Shown: positions 1,490 through 17,892 of the stretch, piece after piece
How the letters are laid out: every line of letters begins with the position of its first letter
How positions within the stretch are numbered: the first letter of the stretch is position 1
Source of the DNA: Promethearchaeati archaeon
Lineage (GTDB): Archaea > Asgardarchaeota > Heimdallarchaeia > JABLTI01
Direction: 5' to 3'
Assembly: GCA_013166835.1 (NCBI GenBank)
Contig: JABLTI010000056.1
Location: 1 to 17,892 of the forward strand
DNA length: 17,892 bases
Notes under the pieces: model-generated
The model's database searches: none
What the model was told of the DNA's origin: nothing
What the model saw: only the letters and a program-made list of their open reading frames with translations
Position numbers and translations under genes: made by a program

Positions 1490-4400
1490 TTGAGGAAGAA
1501 ATTCTTTACTTATGTTATTATCTCAAGTGTGCTTATTGTTTCCATCCTTATCTCAGCATTTGCTGTTAATTTATCGAGAACTAGAGAAATCTTATCTGAA
1601 CCAGAATTTGTGGAGGATTATTCATACCTTCTATATGATAACACTCAATATGATTTTAACAATGACAAAATAGTCAAGATTGATTTTAATACTTCATATA
1701 ATTTTATTGAAGTAATCAATTTGGACCCAGCTCAAAGTTTCGAAGGTGGAATTGCATCAATTGGAAGCATTGAAAATGCCACAAATATGGAACATGGAGT
1801 TGTTGAATTATTTACCTTTACAAAAAACTTGGACGTAATTAGTTACCAGAATACTGCTTCTTATGTTGATACAACTGCATACAATAAAACAAAATACTTG
1901 ACCGGAAAAGCAATTGATAACCGTTTTGATGGTGAAATAGGAAATCCAATGATTGCTTTACTAAAAGAAATACCGCTTAATGACACACATTGGATTGATT
2001 TTCTCGAGATAAATTCCAACAGCCTAGATTTCAATTATACTTATTCAATACCTAAACCTCATTTCGAGGAAATATCTGATTTTGAAATCATAGACGTAGA
2101 TAGTGATGGCAAATATGAGTTATTTGTTCTCGGTAGAAATACCACCAATCCAACAAATTATTCCTTAGCTGAATACAGTTATAATTCGTCAGCTAAAATC
2201 TATAATCTTACCAACACTTACATTTGGAATGGTACAAACCAAAACTTGATTGAGATGAGTGTGATTGCAGAAGCTGCCAATGTTCATTTCATCATCGCAG
2301 GTATAGATTCTTCTTCTTTGGAATCCTTTACACAAGTAATCTCAATTACTCGAGGTAGTACTCGCAGTTTCAGTCTAACAGGATTAGAATACTATTCCTT
2401 TGGTGCAGATACTTTCAGAGTTTATGGAATGAAATTGTATGATACTGGTGCTGCAAACTCTCGAGGTGTAGCCTTATTCGGTTCTTACAGTGTAGGTGTT
2501 TCTGATACCTATCCATTTTGTCTTAATATTGTAGATATTGTAAATCCAATAATTGCTCCAGATTTCATAAGTTTGAGCTATAACCCAAGTTGGTCATTTG
2601 ATGGTTTAATGGTGGACATAGATTACGATGGGATTGATGAGATAATTCAAACAACCTATGATTTAGTTGGGACAATAAAGAGTGATTATGTGGTCATGAC
2701 GAGTTCTGGATTAACAGAGGTTAATAGTGATACTACTGATCTCTACCAAATAAGATCAAGTGCTAATTTGGGTTTATCCGAGTTCCAGATATCCTCCTGG
2801 ATTGGTAAAAATGACTTGGATAATTTTGCAATTGAGTTCTATTATCCTCATCATGTTTCTTATCAGTTATTTGGTAATGCTGAAGTATTAACTCAATATG
2901 AAGATAATCATTTTTACTTAACAACTACCAACCTGGCAGGGAATTCTCAATCAAGATTGGATTTAGAGATTCATGTTGGTTTGTTTTCGGATCCACTGGT
3001 AGATAGGCAACTGACATCAACTCCTGGTAATTTTACATATTATGCCGTTGAAATAGTTCCCCCAGAAATAAATGAAGAAATTATCCTAAATATTACTAAG
3101 GGAACAGTCAAGTTGATCAAAGATGAAATACCAATAAACATTGAATATCCGCTAAACGCTTTGGTTTTAACTCCTCCAGGTTCTGTTCAGATACGAAATG
3201 CTCCTATGAAAACACAAACCTATGAGGTATCAATAGAAAATACCCTTTCACAAGAGATCATTGTAACATTTGAAATTAGTGGTTCAGTATCAAATTATTC
3301 ATTTATTAATCAAATTAACCTTACAGTTGGTGAATCAGTATCTATACATTTAGATTTCGTTTTCTACGGTTCAATTCCAGAAGCCAAATACGAAGAAACT
3401 ATTACCATTACACTAACAACTCCTGCCGGTATCCATAAATTCGAATCAACAATACTTGTAACAAATCTCTTCCATGTGACAGTCAATGATTTGTTTGTGA
3501 TTTTTGGAATTATTGCAGTTCTAGTTGTAATAATCTACATTGGATTAGCAATGATGATTTTACGAAGAACAGAAGAGGCATTTGATAAACACTTTACAAC
3601 AGAAGAACCAGTTAGACTGGACTTTAAGATTTTCAAGAAGAAAGCACTCAGTAATCTAATACAGAAATACTCTCTGGAAAGGAATTGGAAAGCAGGGATA
3701 AACATGGCCAAAGAATACCAGCCAAAATATGTCTCGCATTTCCATAAATACAAAGTGAAGGAGCAATTGATTTCTGGTCAAAAATTGATGGATCAAGGCA
3801 AATTTGATGATGGATTATCTTATTGGCAAGAAGCAAGAGACTCTCTAGAAGTGATTGGACAACATGAATGGATAGACATGTTGACCTGGTTAATAGACCC
3901 ACTTCAAAGAATCGTAGAAATTAGAGCAATGAAAGGAACTGAAAAAGCAGCGGCCTTAGAAAAAGAATTCCAGAATCTAAACAGTATGAAAGATCAGGAA
4001 TTCGTGATACTCGAAACAAAAATTAACATACCATTATACCTTGTTGCTGAGGAATTGGGAATAGCTCTAAAGGATGCAAATGAACTGCAAACCTCCCTCA
4101 ATTACTTACAATTAGCCTATCAAGGAGCCCCTGAGAAATTCAAAAACAGAATCGTAACTGAGATAACTAGCTTGATTAGCCTAGGTGTTACCCCTACAGA
4201 GTTTGCAATGCCGATAGATCACGAAGCTATAAGGGAGAGAATAGAAAAGAGAGTCGTGAGATGCTTTTCATGTGGAGAAGCAAGGACAAATATTAACGAG
4301 GTTTGCTCGAATTGTGGTATTGATACTGTTCTCTGTTCTGTGTGTAAACTACCAATTAGTTTCGGTTCAGAACCTCTAGAATGTTATCACTGTCAGAACG

Positions 4401-4510
4401 TCGCTCACAAAGAGCATTTGCTTGAGTGGGTGAAAGTGAAAGGGATTTGTCCTGTTTGTCAACAAAAGCTTGTTGCTGATAAGCTCACCATCGCAGAGGA
4501 AAAGGAATAG
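1490..4510 (+). CDS. Single-pass membrane receptor-like protein with FG-GAP/VCBS-like ectodomain and cytoplasmic zinc finger + RING-like domain (putative transmembrane E3 ligase)
   Basis: N-terminal signal/TM (MRKKFFTYVIISSVLIVSILISAFA); more than ten N-x-S/T sequons; DxDxDG Ca-binding loops DVDSDGKYEL (aa202) and DIDYDGIDEI (aa376); Ig-like segment at about aa560-660; TM aa668-691 followed by RR; helical TPR-like region; C925-x2-C-x10-C-x2-C finger; then C949-x2-C-x12-C-x2-C-x4-H-x2-H-x3-W-x6-C-P-x-C. Confidence 0.85.
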   Translation: MRKKFFTYVIISSVLIVSILISAFAVNLSRTREILSEPEFVEDYSYLLYDNTQYDFNNDKIVKIDFNTSYNFIEVINLDPAQSFEGGIASIGSIENATNMEHGVVELFTFTKNLDVISYQNTASYVDTTAYNKTKYLTGKAIDNRFDGEIGNPMIALLKEIPLNDTHWIDFLEINSNSLDFNYTYSIPKPHFEEISDFEIIDVDSDGKYELFVLGRNTTNPTNYSLAEYSYNSSAKIYNLTNTYIWNGTNQNLIEMSVIAEAANVHFIIAGIDSSSLESFTQVISITRGSTRSFSLTGLEYYSFGADTFRVYGMKLYDTGAANSRGVALFGSYSVGVSDTYPFCLNIVDIVNPIIAPDFISLSYNPSWSFDGLMVDIDYDGIDEIIQTTYDLVGTIKSDYVVMTSSGLTEVNSDTTDLYQIRSSANLGLSEFQISSWIGKNDLDNFAIEFYYPHHVSYQLFGNAEVLTQYEDNHFYLTTTNLAGNSQSRLDLEIHVGLFSDPLVDRQLTSTPGNFTYYAVEIVPPEINEEIILNITKGTVKLIKDEIPINIEYPLNALVLTPPGSVQIRNAPMKTQTYEVSIENTLSQEIIVTFEISGSVSNYSFINQINLTVGESVSIHLDFVFYGSIPEAKYEETITITLTTPAGIHKFESTILVTNLFHVTVNDLFVIFGIIAVLVVIIYIGLAMMILRRTEEAFDKHFTTEEPVRLDFKIFKKKALSNLIQKYSLERNWKAGINMAKEYQPKYVSHFHKYKVKEQLISGQKLMDQGKFDDGLSYWQEARDSLEVIGQHEWIDMLTWLIDPLQRIVEIRAMKGTEKAAALEKEFQNLNSMKDQEFVILETKINIPLYLVAEELGIALKDANELQTSLNYLQLAYQGAPEKFKNRIVTEITSLISLGVTPTEFAMPIDHEAIRERIEKRVVRCFSCGEARTNINEVCSNCGIDTVLCSVCKLPISFGSEPLECYHCQNVAHKEHLLEWVKVKGICPVCQQKLVADKLTIAEEKE

Positions 4511-4539: not shown

Positions 4540-4583
4540 AAGCTGCCCCTCAAGCAATTGGGGGGTTAGCTTTTCTCCTTTTT
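4540..4583 (+). terminator. Stem-loop plus U-rich tract between convergent genes
   Basis: aagctgcccctcaa-GCAA-ttggggggttagctt forms a hairpin with a GNRA loop and G-U pairs on the + strand, followed by ttctcctttttt. It overlaps the stop codon of the convergent CYTH gene. Confidence 0.6.
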
Positions 4584-5087
4584 CTTCTCGAGTAATAAGT
4601 CGCTATATGAATGGCTTTGAATATCAATTTCTTTAATATCAAATAATTTAATGTAAGACCGAACTATTTCATCCATATGTTCAATTTCATCAGGATTAGT
4701 TGTTATTGCTTCAATTTCTACAAATTTTCCTAATCCCTCTACATCATCAATATTGAATTTAACGTTATCAATAAAGTAAACCTCTCGTTTCTTCTCAACA
4801 GTTACAAGCTCCCCGAGAGCTATTTTGAGAAGTTCCTCAAGTTTTTCAGGTTCCGGAGTTTTGTAGAGAAAATACTCACTTGGTTTTATCCCTTTAATAT
4901 TATCTCGTATGTAAAACACTAAAACACTTTCAATTGTGCTCTTACGAATTTTCAATCTGCCAGTTGGGTTTTTAAAATAAACGTCAATTTGATGATCTTC
5001 TCCACCAAAGAGTGCCCCTTTTTTCTTCAATATATTCCTAATGCGAGTATGATCTTCACATTTAGCTTTAATCTCAACATCGATCAA
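4566..5087 (-). CDS. cyaB: CYTH-domain protein, class IV adenylate cyclase (CyaB)-like / triphosphate tunnel metalloenzyme
   Basis: N-terminal DVEIK (variant of ExExK), QIDVYF, RLKIR, VEKKREVY, IDDVEGLGKFVEIE and C-terminal SYSDLL. TTG start with GGTGA SD 7 nt upstream. Confidence 0.88.
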   Translation of the reverse strand: MIDVEIKAKCEDHTRIRNILKKKGALFGGEDHQIDVYFKNPTGRLKIRKSTIESVLVFYIRDNIKGIKPSEYFLYKTPEPEKLEELLKIALGELVTVEKKREVYFIDNVKFNIDDVEGLGKFVEIEAITTNPDEIEHMDEIVRSYIKLFDIKEIDIQSHSYSDLLLEKKKEKS

Positions 5088-5212
5088 ATTTGATTCACCA
5101 TGAATGCAATTTGCCTGTGGGTAATTTGCCCAACCTATCTTAGTTTTTTCACTATTTTAGAGTATTCCAACAAGATTCCTAAGTAAATTCTAAAAAAAAT
5201 TTCGTTCGAAAT

Positions 5213-5307
5213 CAAAAACGCGGGACCGATTCGAGTAGAACCGACCCGCGTCGAAACAGGAGATAGTCAATATTCAAAATGGCGTGCCAAATGGCATTAT
5301 GCACGCT
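5213..5307 (-). ncRNA. Candidate ~95-nt small structured RNA (or leader of the CYTH gene)
   Basis: GC-rich island in an AT-rich spacer. 5' stem GCGUGC/GCACGC, a single-stranded linker, a 3' stem ACGCGGGUCGGUUC-UACUC-GAAUCGGUCCCGCGU whose G-U pairs work only on the minus strand, then a U-run. A TATA-like box lies about 25 nt upstream. Confidence 0.5.
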
Positions 5308-5328
5308 AAGTAATATTAGCTTTCTAAA

Positions 5329-5345
5329 AATATAAAGGTATTCTT
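5329..5345 (-). promoter_or_regulatory. Archaeal TATA-like box for the candidate RNA at 5307
   Basis: Minus strand reads aagaatacc-TTTATATT. Standard archaeal spacing puts the start site at about 5306-5308, the first bases of the 5' stem. Confidence 0.45.
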
Positions 5346-5500
5346 CTAGCTGATTTTGAATCATTCAATTGTTTCCTTAACCAATTGACTAATTATTTCA
5401 ACTAATTTTATATTGATTTAATCATTTGTTATGACTAATTAAATAAATAAACATCAAAACAAATAATAAATATCTGAAATCAAATGGAAAATCTTCATTC

Positions 5501-5903: not shown

Positions 5904-6956
5904 ATGAGTGAAGACAAGCTTTCTGCTTTAAAAAATTTGATTGATACTCCCAAGGATTTGCACAAGTTGAAGATCTATGAGGGGAAATTAAATCAAGCAT
6001 GTACTTTTCTTCTCTTTGATAGTCGGAAAATTGTGATTAATTCTGAAGCATCTAGTAAATCTATAGAAGAAGCTGCTCGTTTAATTCCACAAATAAGAAC
6101 CCGGGTGGAATCTCTCATTGATAGAGCAAGAACACAAGATCTCAGGATAAGACCAGGAACCCCTGAGAAAATACAAAAACTAATAGCTAATAATAGTTTG
6201 CTCTTTGATTTCATCATTTTCAGTCGTGGTTGGGATCTAAAGGAGGAACTAAAGGAACTGGATTCATTACTTGTTTTAGGAGAGGTTGATAAGATAAAAG
6301 ACCATGTAAAAAAAGTATTAGAGCACATTCAAACGATAGACGAATTATTCGCACAAAAAGATCATGCTAAAACTAATATTCAATCCTCTGAAGATGTTGC
6401 CGCAATTTTGTTGGAGAGATATAATAAAGAAATGGCCATTGCTGAACAAGCTGGAGCTTTGAAAGGCATTCTAAAGCTTGACAAACCAAAATTCATTGGA
6501 AAAAGCAAATATTATGATCAACTTGGAAATTTCATTTTGAAAATCGCAATGACTTACGAATTAGAATCCAATGACACTCCAATAGCGATTAGAGCAATAA
6601 ATGCGATTCTAAATAGAGAATATCCTCGAGTAAAAGCTGATCTAAAAGACATAGTTAAAGCGGTTGAGATTCTTGATGAAAATGGCTTACTTATTTTAAA
6701 GCAAGATCATGAAGGATTGTATTGGATTCAGTTAAGTCCATCTGAAAGTGAAGCGAATATTGTCCTAAAAATGGCAGAAGCAAAAGGGTATCTTACATTA
6801 GAAGAAGTTATAATGGAAACAAATTGGTCTATTGAGAAGGCAACAGAAGAATTAGAGAAATTCGTGAAAGCAGGTTGTGCAATTAAAGATGCTAGCTATT
6901 CTTCAGGAACCAAGTATTATTTTCCTGGCTTAAGTGAGGATGATTCAGAGACCTAG
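5904..6956 (+). CDS. ESCRT-II Vps22/Vps36 (EAP30/SNF8)-like tandem winged-helix protein with N-terminal helical extension
   Basis: C-terminal ~145 aa (YYDQLGNFILKI...DLKDIVKAVEILDENG...WIQLSP...IVLKMAEAKGYLTLEEVIMETNWSIEKATEELEKFVKAGCAIKD...YYFPGL) parallel the eukaryotic Vps22 pattern as I recall it (FYYELG..I / DD..RAI..L / VLQLAE..GYVT..E....L.W..ERA...L..L...G.A..D / YW.P.L). Confidence 0.82.
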   Translation: MSEDKLSALKNLIDTPKDLHKLKIYEGKLNQACTFLLFDSRKIVINSEASSKSIEEAARLIPQIRTRVESLIDRARTQDLRIRPGTPEKIQKLIANNSLLFDFIIFSRGWDLKEELKELDSLLVLGEVDKIKDHVKKVLEHIQTIDELFAQKDHAKTNIQSSEDVAAILLERYNKEMAIAEQAGALKGILKLDKPKFIGKSKYYDQLGNFILKIAMTYELESNDTPIAIRAINAILNREYPRVKADLKDIVKAVEILDENGLLILKQDHEGLYWIQLSPSESEANIVLKMAEAKGYLTLEEVIMETNWSIEKATEELEKFVKAGCAIKDASYSSGTKYYFPGLSEDDSET

Positions 6957-13401: not shown

Positions 13402-14277
13402 ATGGGAAATGAAACAGGAAAACTGTTTTTCAGAATAGCGGTATCAATTACCCTATTAGGGTTGCTTTTGTATTTTGTTCAAGAAATAATAGTTTGGTTT
13501 AGACAATTACCTATAATTATGCCAGCCAATGGTGTACCAGCAACTATTCTAATTTCAAACATAGCAATGATGATAGCAATAATTTTAGTAATAATACTAT
13601 TGTTCACGGGATTCAAGAATACAAAGATAACAAGAATAACAATCATAATAGGAGCAGTGTACCTATTAGGATTTACAATAGCACATGCATTTATACCATT
13701 CTTTAACACAGGGAATTGGGCAATACCTATATTCTTTGGAAAAAACATAGTAGCATTCTATAGCTATTATGATATAAGCTTCATCAATCTATTACTACTA
13801 GGAATAATAGCAATATTTGTGATTGGAAAATCGATAACAAAAATGAATCAAGAAAAAATAACTATAACAGAAAAATTCACATACATAGTAGTGCTGAGCT
13901 TACTATTCATATTTAATCTATCAACAATAAGTACATTAAAAGGATTCTTGTTAGGAGTATATTCAGTATTACAATATTACGGATTCTTTATGCTGCCATA
14001 TATAATAGAAACAATACTGATAGCATTCGCAATAATACTATTTGCAATAAGTATAGGAAATAAAGAAAATAAAACAGTAAAAATACTAGGAATAATACTC
14101 CTAAACATCTTCTTCATAAGTATGATATCAACAACAGTAACAGACTCAATCTTAAATTTCACAATAGGTGCTGAATACATACCATTGGTAACAGGAAATT
14201 ACTTAATAATAATAGGAACGGTACTAACAAGCATAGCATCAATAATAACAATAAAAAATAAAATACAAGAGAAATAA
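13402..14277 (+). CDS. Polytopic membrane protein of unknown function (~8 TM)
   Basis: 291-aa ORF with about eight hydrophobic segments; strong SD AGGAGG at 13389-13394. Confidence 0.8.
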   Translation: MGNETGKLFFRIAVSITLLGLLLYFVQEIIVWFRQLPIIMPANGVPATILISNIAMMIAIILVIILLFTGFKNTKITRITIIIGAVYLLGFTIAHAFIPFFNTGNWAIPIFFGKNIVAFYSYYDISFINLLLLGIIAIFVIGKSITKMNQEKITITEKFTYIVVLSLLFIFNLSTISTLKGFLLGVYSVLQYYGFFMLPYIIETILIAFAIILFAISIGNKENKTVKILGIILLNIFFISMISTTVTDSILNFTIGAEYIPLVTGNYLIIIGTVLTSIASIITIKNKIQEK

Positions 14278-15958: not shown

Positions 15959-17812
15959 TTATTTCACAACTTTCCCATCTTTTATTTCTAGTCCCAAATG
16001 CATGATTATGATTTCTTCAACAACTTCCTTTGAATACATCGTTACTACTACTAACCAGTCAATAGACACACTATGTGCTTTTCTTAAGAGATGTTTTACA
16101 CTATCAACCATTTGTCCTGTTATATCAGGATTCAAGTCGAAACTGTATCCTGTCATCGTACTTCTTGCTGGTTGTTCTAGTGCTTCTCTTTTATGACTTT
16201 CTTTTATCTCTTCAATTTCCTTTAGTTCTTCTATTCCAAGGACAGGTTCTGATGATTCGGAATCTTCTAATACCGCTAGTCTTTGTTTTCTTTGTAATTC
16301 TTGCTCTTTAAGATACTGTTTGAGTATAGATTGAATATGTTCAGTTGAATCTGTACCCTCTGGTGTTTCCCAGCAATTAATTAGTACTTTTTCTCTTTCT
16401 TCTACGAACGTGGTATATATGAAATAGTCTTCATAGCAGCCCGGTTTTTTAATGTCTATTCGTTCTTCTCTTATAAACTCAAAATGCTTAATGTTAGAAA
16501 TATTGACAGAGGCAGCAGTATGTCTATCTCTCCATGAAAGACTATGGGGGGATATTTCTAAGAAACTAGCTTTTATCGATAGTCTATGTGATATAAGAAT
16601 CAACAACCCATAAATCAATCCAATCCCTGCACCAATCAATACGTTGTGTTGGATAAGCATATTATGGTATGCTTCAGATAAGCCCACATTTGATCCAATT
16701 ATTAGGAAAATCGAGAAACTTGCTCCTAAAGCAGTAAGAGCTCCTCTTTTCACAGTGCCACCAAATCTTATGCTTGCTCTTTTCCCTACAAAAGATAATC
16801 CGATTGTGAGAAGAATGAATGGTATTGCTATGAGAAAAATCAATAATACTGGTCCTAAAGTGAAACCCGCACCACAGCCTGCGCCACAGCCTGCGCCACC
16901 AGCACCACCTGCTCCTGCACCACAACCAAGGCACCCCTCGCATCCAGAGCAGTCGCTACTACCGCAACCGGAACAAGGGTCAGATCCACAACCTGAACAA
17001 TCTGTTCCTGATTTCTTTTTCCTATCCTCACGAATATCGCCCAAAAAGGAACTACCAGATTTTTCATCACAGGAAGATATTCGCTCACCACATTTCGTAT
17101 ATTCAATTCTTCCCAAGTTAGCTTCTAGGCCAAATCTTACGAAAAATGCTACAAATAATCCAACCAGCAATCCGATACCAATACCTATAGCAACTAAGAT
17201 ATCTGGACCAAAGATTGCTAGTAATCCCGCTCCGCCAACAATAATTCCTGAAATTGCTCCTCCAAGAAAAACATTAAGAGTTCCAAAACTCGCTAAAACC
17301 CCAATTAATGTCCCAATATTTAATCCTAACACTGTCCAGATTAGAATGCTGAAAACGGGGATGCTAAGTGTGGTATAATTAGTATATTTTAAAACCTCTA
17401 AAATCAAACCAAATAGTGATCCAACAATGGCTCCGAAAAAGATGCCAATAACTGCCCCAACAAACACATTGGTACCTATTCCTGCACCATAACTTGCACT
17501 AAAGTCATCAACCATTTTTGATTTTAAAGCTATAATAAGGATTAATCCAAGTGTTAATCCTAAAAGCGCTCCAATTCCTGATCCTATTCCCATTATTGCA
17601 TATTCATTCGTTATGTTTGTATATAAATAAATTAAATCAATAATTGCTCCAGCACCCGCACCAAAAAATATGCCCAGAAATATTAGTAATAATCCATTTC
17701 GAAGTGATTTCTTATTGTCAAATATTAATTTGAATTTGTATTCCGGGGAATCATCTAATCTACTTTGGTATTGCTTCCTAATTGGAATGCTCTCTGCTTT
17801 TTCTCCACTCAT
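15959..17812 (-). CDS. Glycine-zipper polytopic membrane protein with Cys-rich loop and C-terminal soluble domains
   Basis: About nine GxxxG-rich hydrophobic helices, a Cys/Gly-rich loop, a beta-rich PH-like segment (FLEISPHSLSWRD...VNISNIKHFEF), a charged coiled region and a winged-helix-like tail. Likely start is ATG at 17812 with GGAGG upstream; the ORF extends to 17833. Confidence 0.85.
   Translation of the reverse strand: MSGEKAESIPIRKQYQSRLDDSPEYKFKLIFDNKKSLRNGLLLIFLGIFFGAGAGAIIDLIYLYTNITNEYAIMGIGSGIGALLGLTLGLILIIALKSKMVDDFSASYGAGIGTNVFVGAVIGIFFGAIVGSLFGLILEVLKYTNYTTLSIPVFSILIWTVLGLNIGTLIGVLASFGTLNVFLGGAISGIIVGGAGLLAIFGPDILVAIGIGIGLLVGLFVAFFVRFGLEANLGRIEYTKCGERISSCDEKSGSSFLGDIREDRKKKSGTDCSGCGSDPCSGCGSSDCSGCEGCLGCGAGAGGAGGAGCGAGCGAGFTLGPVLLIFLIAIPFILLTIGLSFVGKRASIRFGGTVKRGALTALGASFSIFLIIGSNVGLSEAYHNMLIQHNVLIGAGIGLIYGLLILISHRLSIKASFLEISPHSLSWRDRHTAASVNISNIKHFEFIREERIDIKKPGCYEDYFIYTTFVEEREKVLINCWETPEGTDSTEHIQSILKQYLKEQELQRKQRLAVLEDSESSEPVLGIEELKEIEEIKESHKREALEQPARSTMTGYSFDLNPDITGQMVDSVKHLLRKAHSVSIDWLVVVTMYSKEVVEEIIIMHLGLEIKDGKVVK
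16872..16895. repeat. Perfect 12-bp tandem duplication encoding the AGCG repeat
   Basis: ccacagcctgcg occurs twice (16872-16883 and 16884-16895) within the GC-rich Cys/Gly loop of the minus-strand gene. Confidence 0.8.
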
Positions 17813-17892
17813 TATTGGGTTTCCCTCCACCAATATTTGTAATTTATGAATGATTTTTAGAATTGATTAATAATACAAATAATTTCTATTTT

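Follow-up and report, generated by a model that had tools for sequence, protein, structure and literature searches.

The question raised by this locus is what kind of element lies on the minus strand at positions 5214-5307 of contig JABLTI010000056.1, for which a first-pass annotation proposed a novel, independently transcribed small RNA. The contig, analysed over its whole length of 17,892 nt and here called the window, belongs to a metagenome-assembled genome of 3.56 Mb, 85% complete, with a GC content of 34%. The element is very probably a conserved, structured, non-coding small RNA gene under selection. Judged from sequence, its RNA family is previously undescribed, with two predicted paralogs per genome in one Heimdall-group Asgard genus. 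The function preferred here, at a probability of about 0.4, is action in trans, the single-stranded core of the RNA masking ribosome-binding sites (RBSs) on a small set of mRNAs. The parts of the locus, copy 1 of the family, are as follows.

5337-5347, minus strand: purine-rich element AGAAGAATACC resembling a B recognition element (BRE), the upstream part of the promoter, from sequence.
5330-5336, minus strand: TATA-like TTTATAT, from sequence; it ends the promoter (5347-5330) and is followed by a spacer of 22 nt.
5214-5307, minus strand: small RNA gene, copy 1, predicted, about 90-95 nt; the 3' end lies perhaps beyond 5205.
5282-5306, minus strand: 5' hairpin, stem GCGUGC / GCACGC, loop A-UGCCAU, from the fold; with the preceding A it reads A-GCGUGC-AUAAUGCCAUUUG-GCACGC (5307-5282).
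5275-5280, minus strand: U-rich AUUUUG, Sm-site-like, from sequence; it lies in the linker C-AUUUUG-AAUAUU-GACUAUCUCCUGUUU-CGA (5281-5251).
5254-5268, minus strand: single-stranded core GACUAUCUCCUGUUU, containing CUCCU; proposed seed, from invariance and predicted openness.
5219-5250, minus strand: 3' hairpin CGCGGG...CCCGCG, 13 bp, its 3' strand interrupted by a bulged U (...GG-U-CCCGCG), from the fold; the whole arm reads CGCGGGUCGGUUC-UACUC-GAAUCGG-U-CCCGCG (5250-5219).
5214-5218, minus strand: U5 tract, possible archaeal terminator, from sequence.
5205-5211, minus strand: TTTCGAA, from the tails of copy-1 genes.

Hairpins, linker, TATA-like box and CUCCU had all been named in the first-pass annotation, and each is found on the minus strand where it had been placed. 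The contrast in base composition described there is likewise present, the GC fraction being 0.46 at 5200-5299, 0.16-0.19 at 5350-5499 and 0.30 at 5100-5199. The copy-1 RNA (95 nt) has a minimum free energy (MFE) of -33.5 kcal/mol, against a mean of -21.8 kcal/mol (sd 3.2) for 200 dinucleotide shuffles, none of which is equally stable (z = -3.68).

The fold goes beyond chance because the same architecture recurs, with compensatory changes, in 26 related sequences. This set comprises 12 copy-1 and 14 copy-2 members, namely 21 genes of the genus plus 5 variants from pattern scans of public contigs, both genomic and metagenomic; 23 sequences and 21 3' arms are distinct. Folded alone, the 3' arm gives a single hairpin of 11-14 bp with a bulge of 1-2 nt on the 3' strand in 26 of 26 members. 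The distal positions 9-12 of this stem show 3 to 6 pair types each in per-sequence MFE folds, which are biased towards pairs. The loop UGCCAU and the linker core GACU(A/G)UCUCCUGUU are kept in every member, and 10 of the 12 copy-1 genes have one and the same 32-nt linker.

Covariation is assessed on 21 genes (18 distinct rows) and 16 modelled pairs, in an alignment fitted to the covariance model's own structure. Standard pairs occupy 95.5% of 288 cells, and 27-66% after a shift of the 3' partners by 1-3 columns. Changes on both sides affect 6 pairs and 35 cells (e.g. CG/UA/AU, GC/AU, UA/CG). Pairs of the 5' stem vary on both sides, one of them as CG, UA or AU, and the basal pairs of the 3' hairpin covary. 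The observed paired fraction, doubly-changed-cell count and covariation score are each matched by 0 of 500 column shuffles. Less favourable are the other two of the five measures, which are unremarkable (pairs with a double change, 89 of 500 shuffles; further pair types, 493 of 500), and the alignment itself, which, being fitted to the structure, favours the proposed pairing in this test.

A second copy is present in the genome. BLAST of the element against the genome places this paralog (copy 2) on another contig, at G000:C123:10804-10881, with 75% identity. Copy 2 has a TATA-like box spaced as in copy 1. Its 5' stem differs (GCGUGUUA/UAACACGC), with loop letters that are still UGCCAU; the 15-mer GACUAUCUCCUGUUU is identical, and the 3' hairpin is long and wholly different in sequence. 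The exact GACUAUCUCCUGUUU occurs in this genome in the two RNA genes only. In a sample of 61 related genomes, BLAST gives strong matches in 10 of the 10 other genomes of the genus, and the orthologs of copy 2 are recovered among the weaker matches. Across the 11 genomes of the genus there are 10 copy-1 and 11 copy-2 genes; copy 1 is missing from a single genome, of 64% completeness. A covariance model (R1) trained on the 11 copy-2 genes only recovers the 10 copy-1 genes, each with 49-61 bits (E 1e-11 to 1e-14); since every copy-1 gene is recovered, copies 1 and 2 are homologous. With a further covariance model, R2, the locus in the window (5212-5307) reaches 91.9 bits.

Both copies keep their places. 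Copy 1 lies behind an 81-codon membrane-protein open reading frame (ORF) and beside a divergent EAP30/Vps36-like gene. Copy 2 lies behind an FKBP gene in 10 of 11 genomes. The gene downstream is CYTH at 6 of 10 copy-1 loci and a UDG-family gene at 6 of 11 copy-2 loci, others standing elsewhere. Contigs of relatives from four sequencing runs are about 90% identical across the locus. In distant members of the genus the neighbouring proteins are 37-57% identical, against 84-89% for the copy-1 RNA and 100% for its 32-nt linker. An RNA so much better kept than the proteins beside it points to strong purifying selection on the RNA. In one copy-2 gene, that of genome G003 (L055:279-391, minus strand), an additional perfect hairpin of 19 nt, UACGAAC-UUCA-GUUCGUA, is inserted into the linker immediately 5' of the core; the gene is otherwise intact.

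The BRE and TATA-like elements at 5330-5347 place the predicted transcription start at about A5307/G5306. A TATA box fitting a start at the 5' stem had been proposed at the outset, and the family agrees: in 21 of 26 members a regular expression detects a TATA-like hexamer whose first base lies 28-31 nt ahead of the G that opens the 5' stem. Three of the remaining five are mis-anchored by the script, and two have ATATATAAA at the TATA position. The strand had earlier been assigned from G-U pairs, and 13 G-U or U-G cells among the modelled pairs are compatible with the RNA strand, the minus strand, only. This strand folds better than its reverse complement in 20 of 26 members, with a mean gain of 3.9 kcal/mol.

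The 3' end is less uniform. The annotated U-tract exists as U5 at 5214-5218 but is not conserved, a T5 run standing immediately after the 3' stem in 6 of 12 copy-1 and 0 of 14 copy-2 genes. Most genes without the adjacent T5 have runs of T4-T5 5-20 nt farther downstream. An invariant TTTCGAA stands 5-7 nt past the 3' hairpin in every copy-1 gene (12 of 12); copy 2 lacks it. That an upstream UUUCGA pairs with this UUUCGAA is not supported; two members have G to A in the upstream part with no compensating change.

Distribution is narrow. Over 83 genomes of the class, R2 scores 80-101 bits in the 11 genus genomes (1-2 matches of at least 80 bits each). The 72 genomes of other genera give at most about 21 bits, and the weak matches lack the stems on inspection. 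With laxer filters, five genomes of other genera, including the only sister-genus genome (75% complete), reach 15-17 bits at best; near the FKBP orthologs at 11 loci of other families, with filters off, the best score is 11 bits. BLAST matches outside the genus lack the flanking stems. The pattern scan of genome contigs yields 15 true members among 80 examined of 86 matches, 14 of them labelled Candidatus Heimdallarchaeota and 1 Bathyarchaeia; that of metagenome contigs yields 11 true members among 80 examined of 116 matches. Both scans demanded the exact core, so that diverged relatives are undetectable by them, and the family is accordingly described as not found outside one genus rather than as absent elsewhere. 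No conserved small RNA family from Heimdall-group Asgard archaea is described in the literature found or in Rfam 15, which is not proof of absence. The family is a concrete object for studying RNA-based regulation and SmAP/Lsm function in the Heimdall lineage; its wider reach is limited by the restriction to one genus.

The element falls into no known family by Rfam, ARAGORN or box motifs. The comparison with Rfam, which the first-pass annotation had named as a check, gives 0 matches at the gathering thresholds of Rfam 15 over the whole window; in E-value mode, the best scores for copies 1 and 2 are 10-20 bits against thresholds of 36-376 (E 0.8-10). ARAGORN finds 0 tRNA or tmRNA genes in the window. 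A tRNA is rejected, the loop resembling an anticodon loop and nothing else being tRNA-like. A C/D box small RNA (sRNA) is rejected: RUGAUGA, UGAUGA and UGAUG each occur in 0 of 26 members, and CUGA in 11 of 26, solely within the variable 3' loop. An H/ACA sRNA is rejected, there being no internal loop larger than a bulge of 1-2 nt and no conserved ACA after the 3' stem. The earlier judgement that the element resembles none of these three classes stands. A likeness of the 3' hairpin to group II intron domain V or to the U6 internal stem-loop is rejected by eye against the consensus, the loops not being GNRA, and no Rfam intron family is listed up to E 10. The broader proposal of a novel, independently transcribed small RNA is supported by the conserved, covarying structure, the TATA spacing and the lack of an Rfam or tRNA match; the AUUUUG and the U-tract attached to it are not general.

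The 5'-hairpin loop at 5289-5295 (minus strand) reads N-U-GCC-A-U in 26 of 26 members, like a 7-nt anticodon loop with U33, anticodon GCC and A37. A tRNA-Gly(GCC), sought in connection with the idea of anticodon-arm mimicry, is not found among the 20 tRNAs of the incomplete genome, and the idea gains no support.

As to function, the mechanism considered best is as follows. A BRE/TATA promoter of its own would drive the RNA, whose exposed, CU-rich core would bind by base pairing to purine-rich RBSs of the type (A)AACAGGAGAU(A), of the form AAACAGGAGAUA, and thereby mask translation initiation. Among the candidate targets, the best is a gene for a plsY-like glycerol-3-phosphate acyltransferase. 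Quite speculatively, an Sm-like (SmAP) chaperone might be recruited by the U-rich stretch 5' of the core.

Several findings are consistent with masking. The core is predicted to be open, with a mean unpaired probability of 0.68 over its 15 nt and 0.84 over AUCUCCUG. CUCCU, noted earlier as complementary to AGGAG, is invariant (26 of 26 members). The sole substitution in the core, A to G in two separate members (one copy-1, one copy-2), would retain pairing with U. The organism uses Shine-Dalgarno (SD) sites: AGGAG heads the 5-mers that precede 1547 confident starts (139 instances, versus 18 in the control window). Of the 5-mers that precede GGAG at 1206 RBS-like sites, AAACA, complementary to UGUUU, is the most frequent (15 against 3.7 expected); before GGAG elsewhere it occurs at 40 of 16061 sites. 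Matches to the core complement with at most 2 mismatches number 11 in all, 3 of them RBSs, those of the plsY-like, PhzF-like and Fe-S protein genes. At the plsY-like gene, ACAGGAGAU stands at the RBS in 10 of 10 genus orthologs, the remaining leader having diverged; the sister-genus ortholog and paralog lack ACAGGAGAU, and no such RNA is found there either. The predicted duplex with the plsY-like RBS has -17.2 kcal/mol for the RNA core against -7.1 kcal/mol for the 16S 3' end. The 16S 3' end of two genus members reads GGAUCACCUCCU; it is like the core in its CUCCU, complementary to AGGAG, but cannot match the complementarity of the small RNA to AAAC upstream and AUA downstream of GGAG, and the small RNA is a separate 90-nt gene.

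The two plsY-like genes of this genome (G000:C130:4250-4930 and G000:C203:6443-7105) are bacterial-type close paralogs (PF02660, E = 8e-36). Within the class, at E <= 1e-45, they are found only in the taxonomic family of this genome.

Related modes of action have been recorded. The review PMC5867862 credits sRNA154 and sRNA41 of Methanosarcina mazei with masking RBSs, an archaeal precedent. They are like the present RNA in being intergenic, structured and about 100 nt long, in independent transcription (predicted for the present RNA) and in an exposed anti-RBS sequence in an SD-using archaeon. The present RNA is unlike them in having no sequence or Rfam relationship to them, in belonging to a Heimdall-group Asgard lineage and in having two paralogs per genome. 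Bacterial sRNAs of the RsaE/RoxS type use C/U-rich unpaired motifs to target SD sequences. The present RNA shares with that type hairpins with an unpaired, pyrimidine-rich seed complementary to a GGAG-type SD, and a U-rich stretch that possibly serves an Sm-like chaperone; it differs in giving no RsaE match up to E 10, in its archaeal promoter and in its unconserved 3' U-tract.

Other results weigh against masking. The full 15-nt complement of the core, even with wobble, is absent outside the RNA genes in this genome and 10 relatives, and near-matches to it are no commoner than for a reversed control. In the relatives, the four conserved near-matches lie inside coding sequence (KQEIV-type peptides). 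The one-mismatch sites (n = 3) are coding in two cases and possibly coding in the third; one site lies just upstream of an ORF. At 195 AGGAG RBS sites the mean flank match is 3.02, against 3.11 for permuted flanks. Only the tail is mildly enriched, with matches of at least 7/10 at 6 sites against 1.9 expected, a result reached by 3.7% of 7560 permutations. Other candidate targets have their site in part of the genes, ACAGGAGA in about 12 of 20 DAGK/YegS-like lipid-kinase genes and AACAGGAGAT in 6 of 16 genes from one membrane-protein family, a recurrence that speaks for masking and, being incomplete, also against it. The motif AAACAGGAG-N4-11-ATG is enriched class-wide, with 567 occurrences against 251 reversed controls (2.3x) in the 72 genomes of other genera, and 115 against 32 (3.6x) in the genus; over the 83 genomes there is no enrichment before ATG of the comparator AAAAAGGAG. 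As AAACAGGAG is enriched where no RNA is found, it is not specific to the carriers of the RNA. The candidate targets are chosen in this genome, and their recurrence in paralogs is partly ascertainment. The invariance of the 32-nt copy-1 linker, of UGCCAU and of the bulge exceeds the needs of a pairing seed.

Further observations concern the same motifs. The enrichment of AAACAGGAG spans all families of the class, and the 16S 3' end cannot pair with its AAAC part. In the membrane-protein family (598 aa), the paralog at G006:C42:37104-38729 (minus strand) has 5 in-frame stops (3 TGA, 1 TAG, 1 TAA) and is probably a pseudogene. The complement of the loop UGCCAU is AUGGCA. A two-site model, with the core on the SD and UGCCAU on AUGGCA, is rejected, AGGAGAT...ATGGCA occurring 7 times, much as with ATGGCT (6) and ATGACA (5) in its place. 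A 3599-codon ORF at G000:C123:23450-34249 (minus strand), on the contig shared with copy 2, has the RBS and start AATCAGGAGATAGAA-AA-ATGGCA. A role as rRNA guide is rejected, the duplexes being no better than those of shuffled cores (16S p = 0.07-0.29, 23S p = 0.53); the 16S and 23S for this comparison are from a genus member, this genome having no rRNA contigs.

If the RNA does mask RBSs, it would represent bacterial-style translational masking in an Asgard archaeon, with possible action on bacterial-type lipid genes (plsY-like, DAGK/YegS-like).

The alternative that survives best, possible although somewhat doubtful, is that the RNA binds protein, as scaffold, decoy or sponge, with UGCCAU, the linker and the bulged 3' hairpin as recognition sites and mRNA pairing secondary or absent. 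The partner might then be SmAP/Lsm, bound to the U-rich stretch, or a factor whose usual site is the CU-rich 16S 3' end, which the core resembles in part. Such a role would fit the invariance well beyond the seed (linker in 10 of 12 copy-1 genes, UGCCAU and bulge in 26 of 26 members), the failure to find a full-length complementary target in the genome or its relatives, the CUCCU common to the core and the 16S 3' end GGAUCACCUCCU, and the two LSM-domain proteins encoded in the genome. It is weakened by the neighbourhoods, which differ between copies 1 and 2 and link no partner to the RNA, and by the rarity in copy 2 of the Sm-like AU(3-6)G (2 of 14 genes). As the loop, the whole linker and the bulge are invariant, proteins may well recognise the RNA too.

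A small nuclear RNA (snRNA)-like, Sm-class ribonucleoprotein (RNP) RNA, with a U-rich Sm site between two hairpins and assembled with Sm-like proteins in a host related to the eukaryotic ancestor, is very unlikely. Heimdall-group Asgard archaea are the archaeal lineage placed closest to eukaryotes, and the host belongs to them, to judge from the EAP30/Vps36-like gene beside the RNA and the labels of family members. The likeness to Sm-class spliceosomal snRNAs lies in the copy-1 AUUUUG between stem-loops and in the same two LSM-domain proteins. This Sm-like AUUUUG, stressed in the first-pass annotation, is seen in 11 of 12 copy-1 genes, the twelfth having AUUUUUG, but in 0 of 14 copy-2 genes; all 12 copy-1 genes fit the wider consensus AU(3-6)G, as do the 2 copy-2 genes already mentioned, copy 2 being U-rich but variable at this place. 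No U1-U7 or other spliceosomal snRNA family is listed up to E 10. The only snRNA-typed match is the C/D-box small nucleolar RNA snoZ199, at 15.7 bits against a gathering threshold of 47, on the opposite strand of the paralog. The family is confined, as far as found, to one genus, and no splicing-related sequence motif or other link to splicing is recognised by eye. That the RNA, with its U-rich site between hairpins, invariant single-stranded recognition sequence and bulged 3' hairpin, is the core of an Sm/Lsm-bound RNP pairing with RNA targets, and so an archaeal counterpart or precursor of Sm-class guide RNPs and not an sRNA of bacterial style, would be a long shot.

Equally improbable is a role in cis, as leader, attenuator or riboswitch of the gene that follows. 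The CYTH ORF (4566-5087) lies on the same strand about 125 nt downstream of the RNA, and the 3' end of the RNA, a hairpin plus a U-run, is terminator-like. The first-pass annotation had offered a CYTH leader as its alternative, which fails on the comparison of loci: CYTH follows just 6 of 10 copy-1 genes, and the paralog stands beside other genes, UDG-family at 6 of 11 loci. The arrangement of hairpin and U5 is not conserved across the family, no alternative (antiterminator) pairing is conserved, and no Rfam riboswitch or leader comes near threshold.

A small protein gene is scarcely credible. A 50-codon ORF at 5212-5364 (minus strand) is present in the window and two close relatives, but the open stretch in the same frame ranges from 16 to 61 codons over the 26 members, with differing starts and ends, the peptide is unconserved except for DYLLF, 3 copy-2 members have no start codon, and the substitutions are compensatory for RNA pairing.

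A palindromic DNA repeat of the miniature inverted-repeat transposable element (MITE) or repetitive extragenic palindrome (REP) kind, the multi-copy case that the first-pass annotation had itself raised, or a chance GC-rich fold can practically be set aside: the locus is a GC-rich palindromic island within AT-rich DNA, but each genome has no more than 2 copies, both of which keep their synteny throughout the genus, a single strand is defined by G-U pairs and promoter, and neither terminal inverted repeats nor target-site duplications are seen by eye.

Among the other long ORFs of the window, those at 2-811, 859-1488, 1490-4510 (plus strand, 1006 aa), 13402-14277 and 15959-17833 have no Pfam match (E <= 0.001). 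The 350-aa ORF at 5904-6956 (plus strand), divergent to the RNA, has an EAP30/Vps36-family (ESCRT-II) domain (E = 3.7e-8), and this EAP30/Vps36-like ORF is retained beside copy 1 in 8 of 9 other loci.

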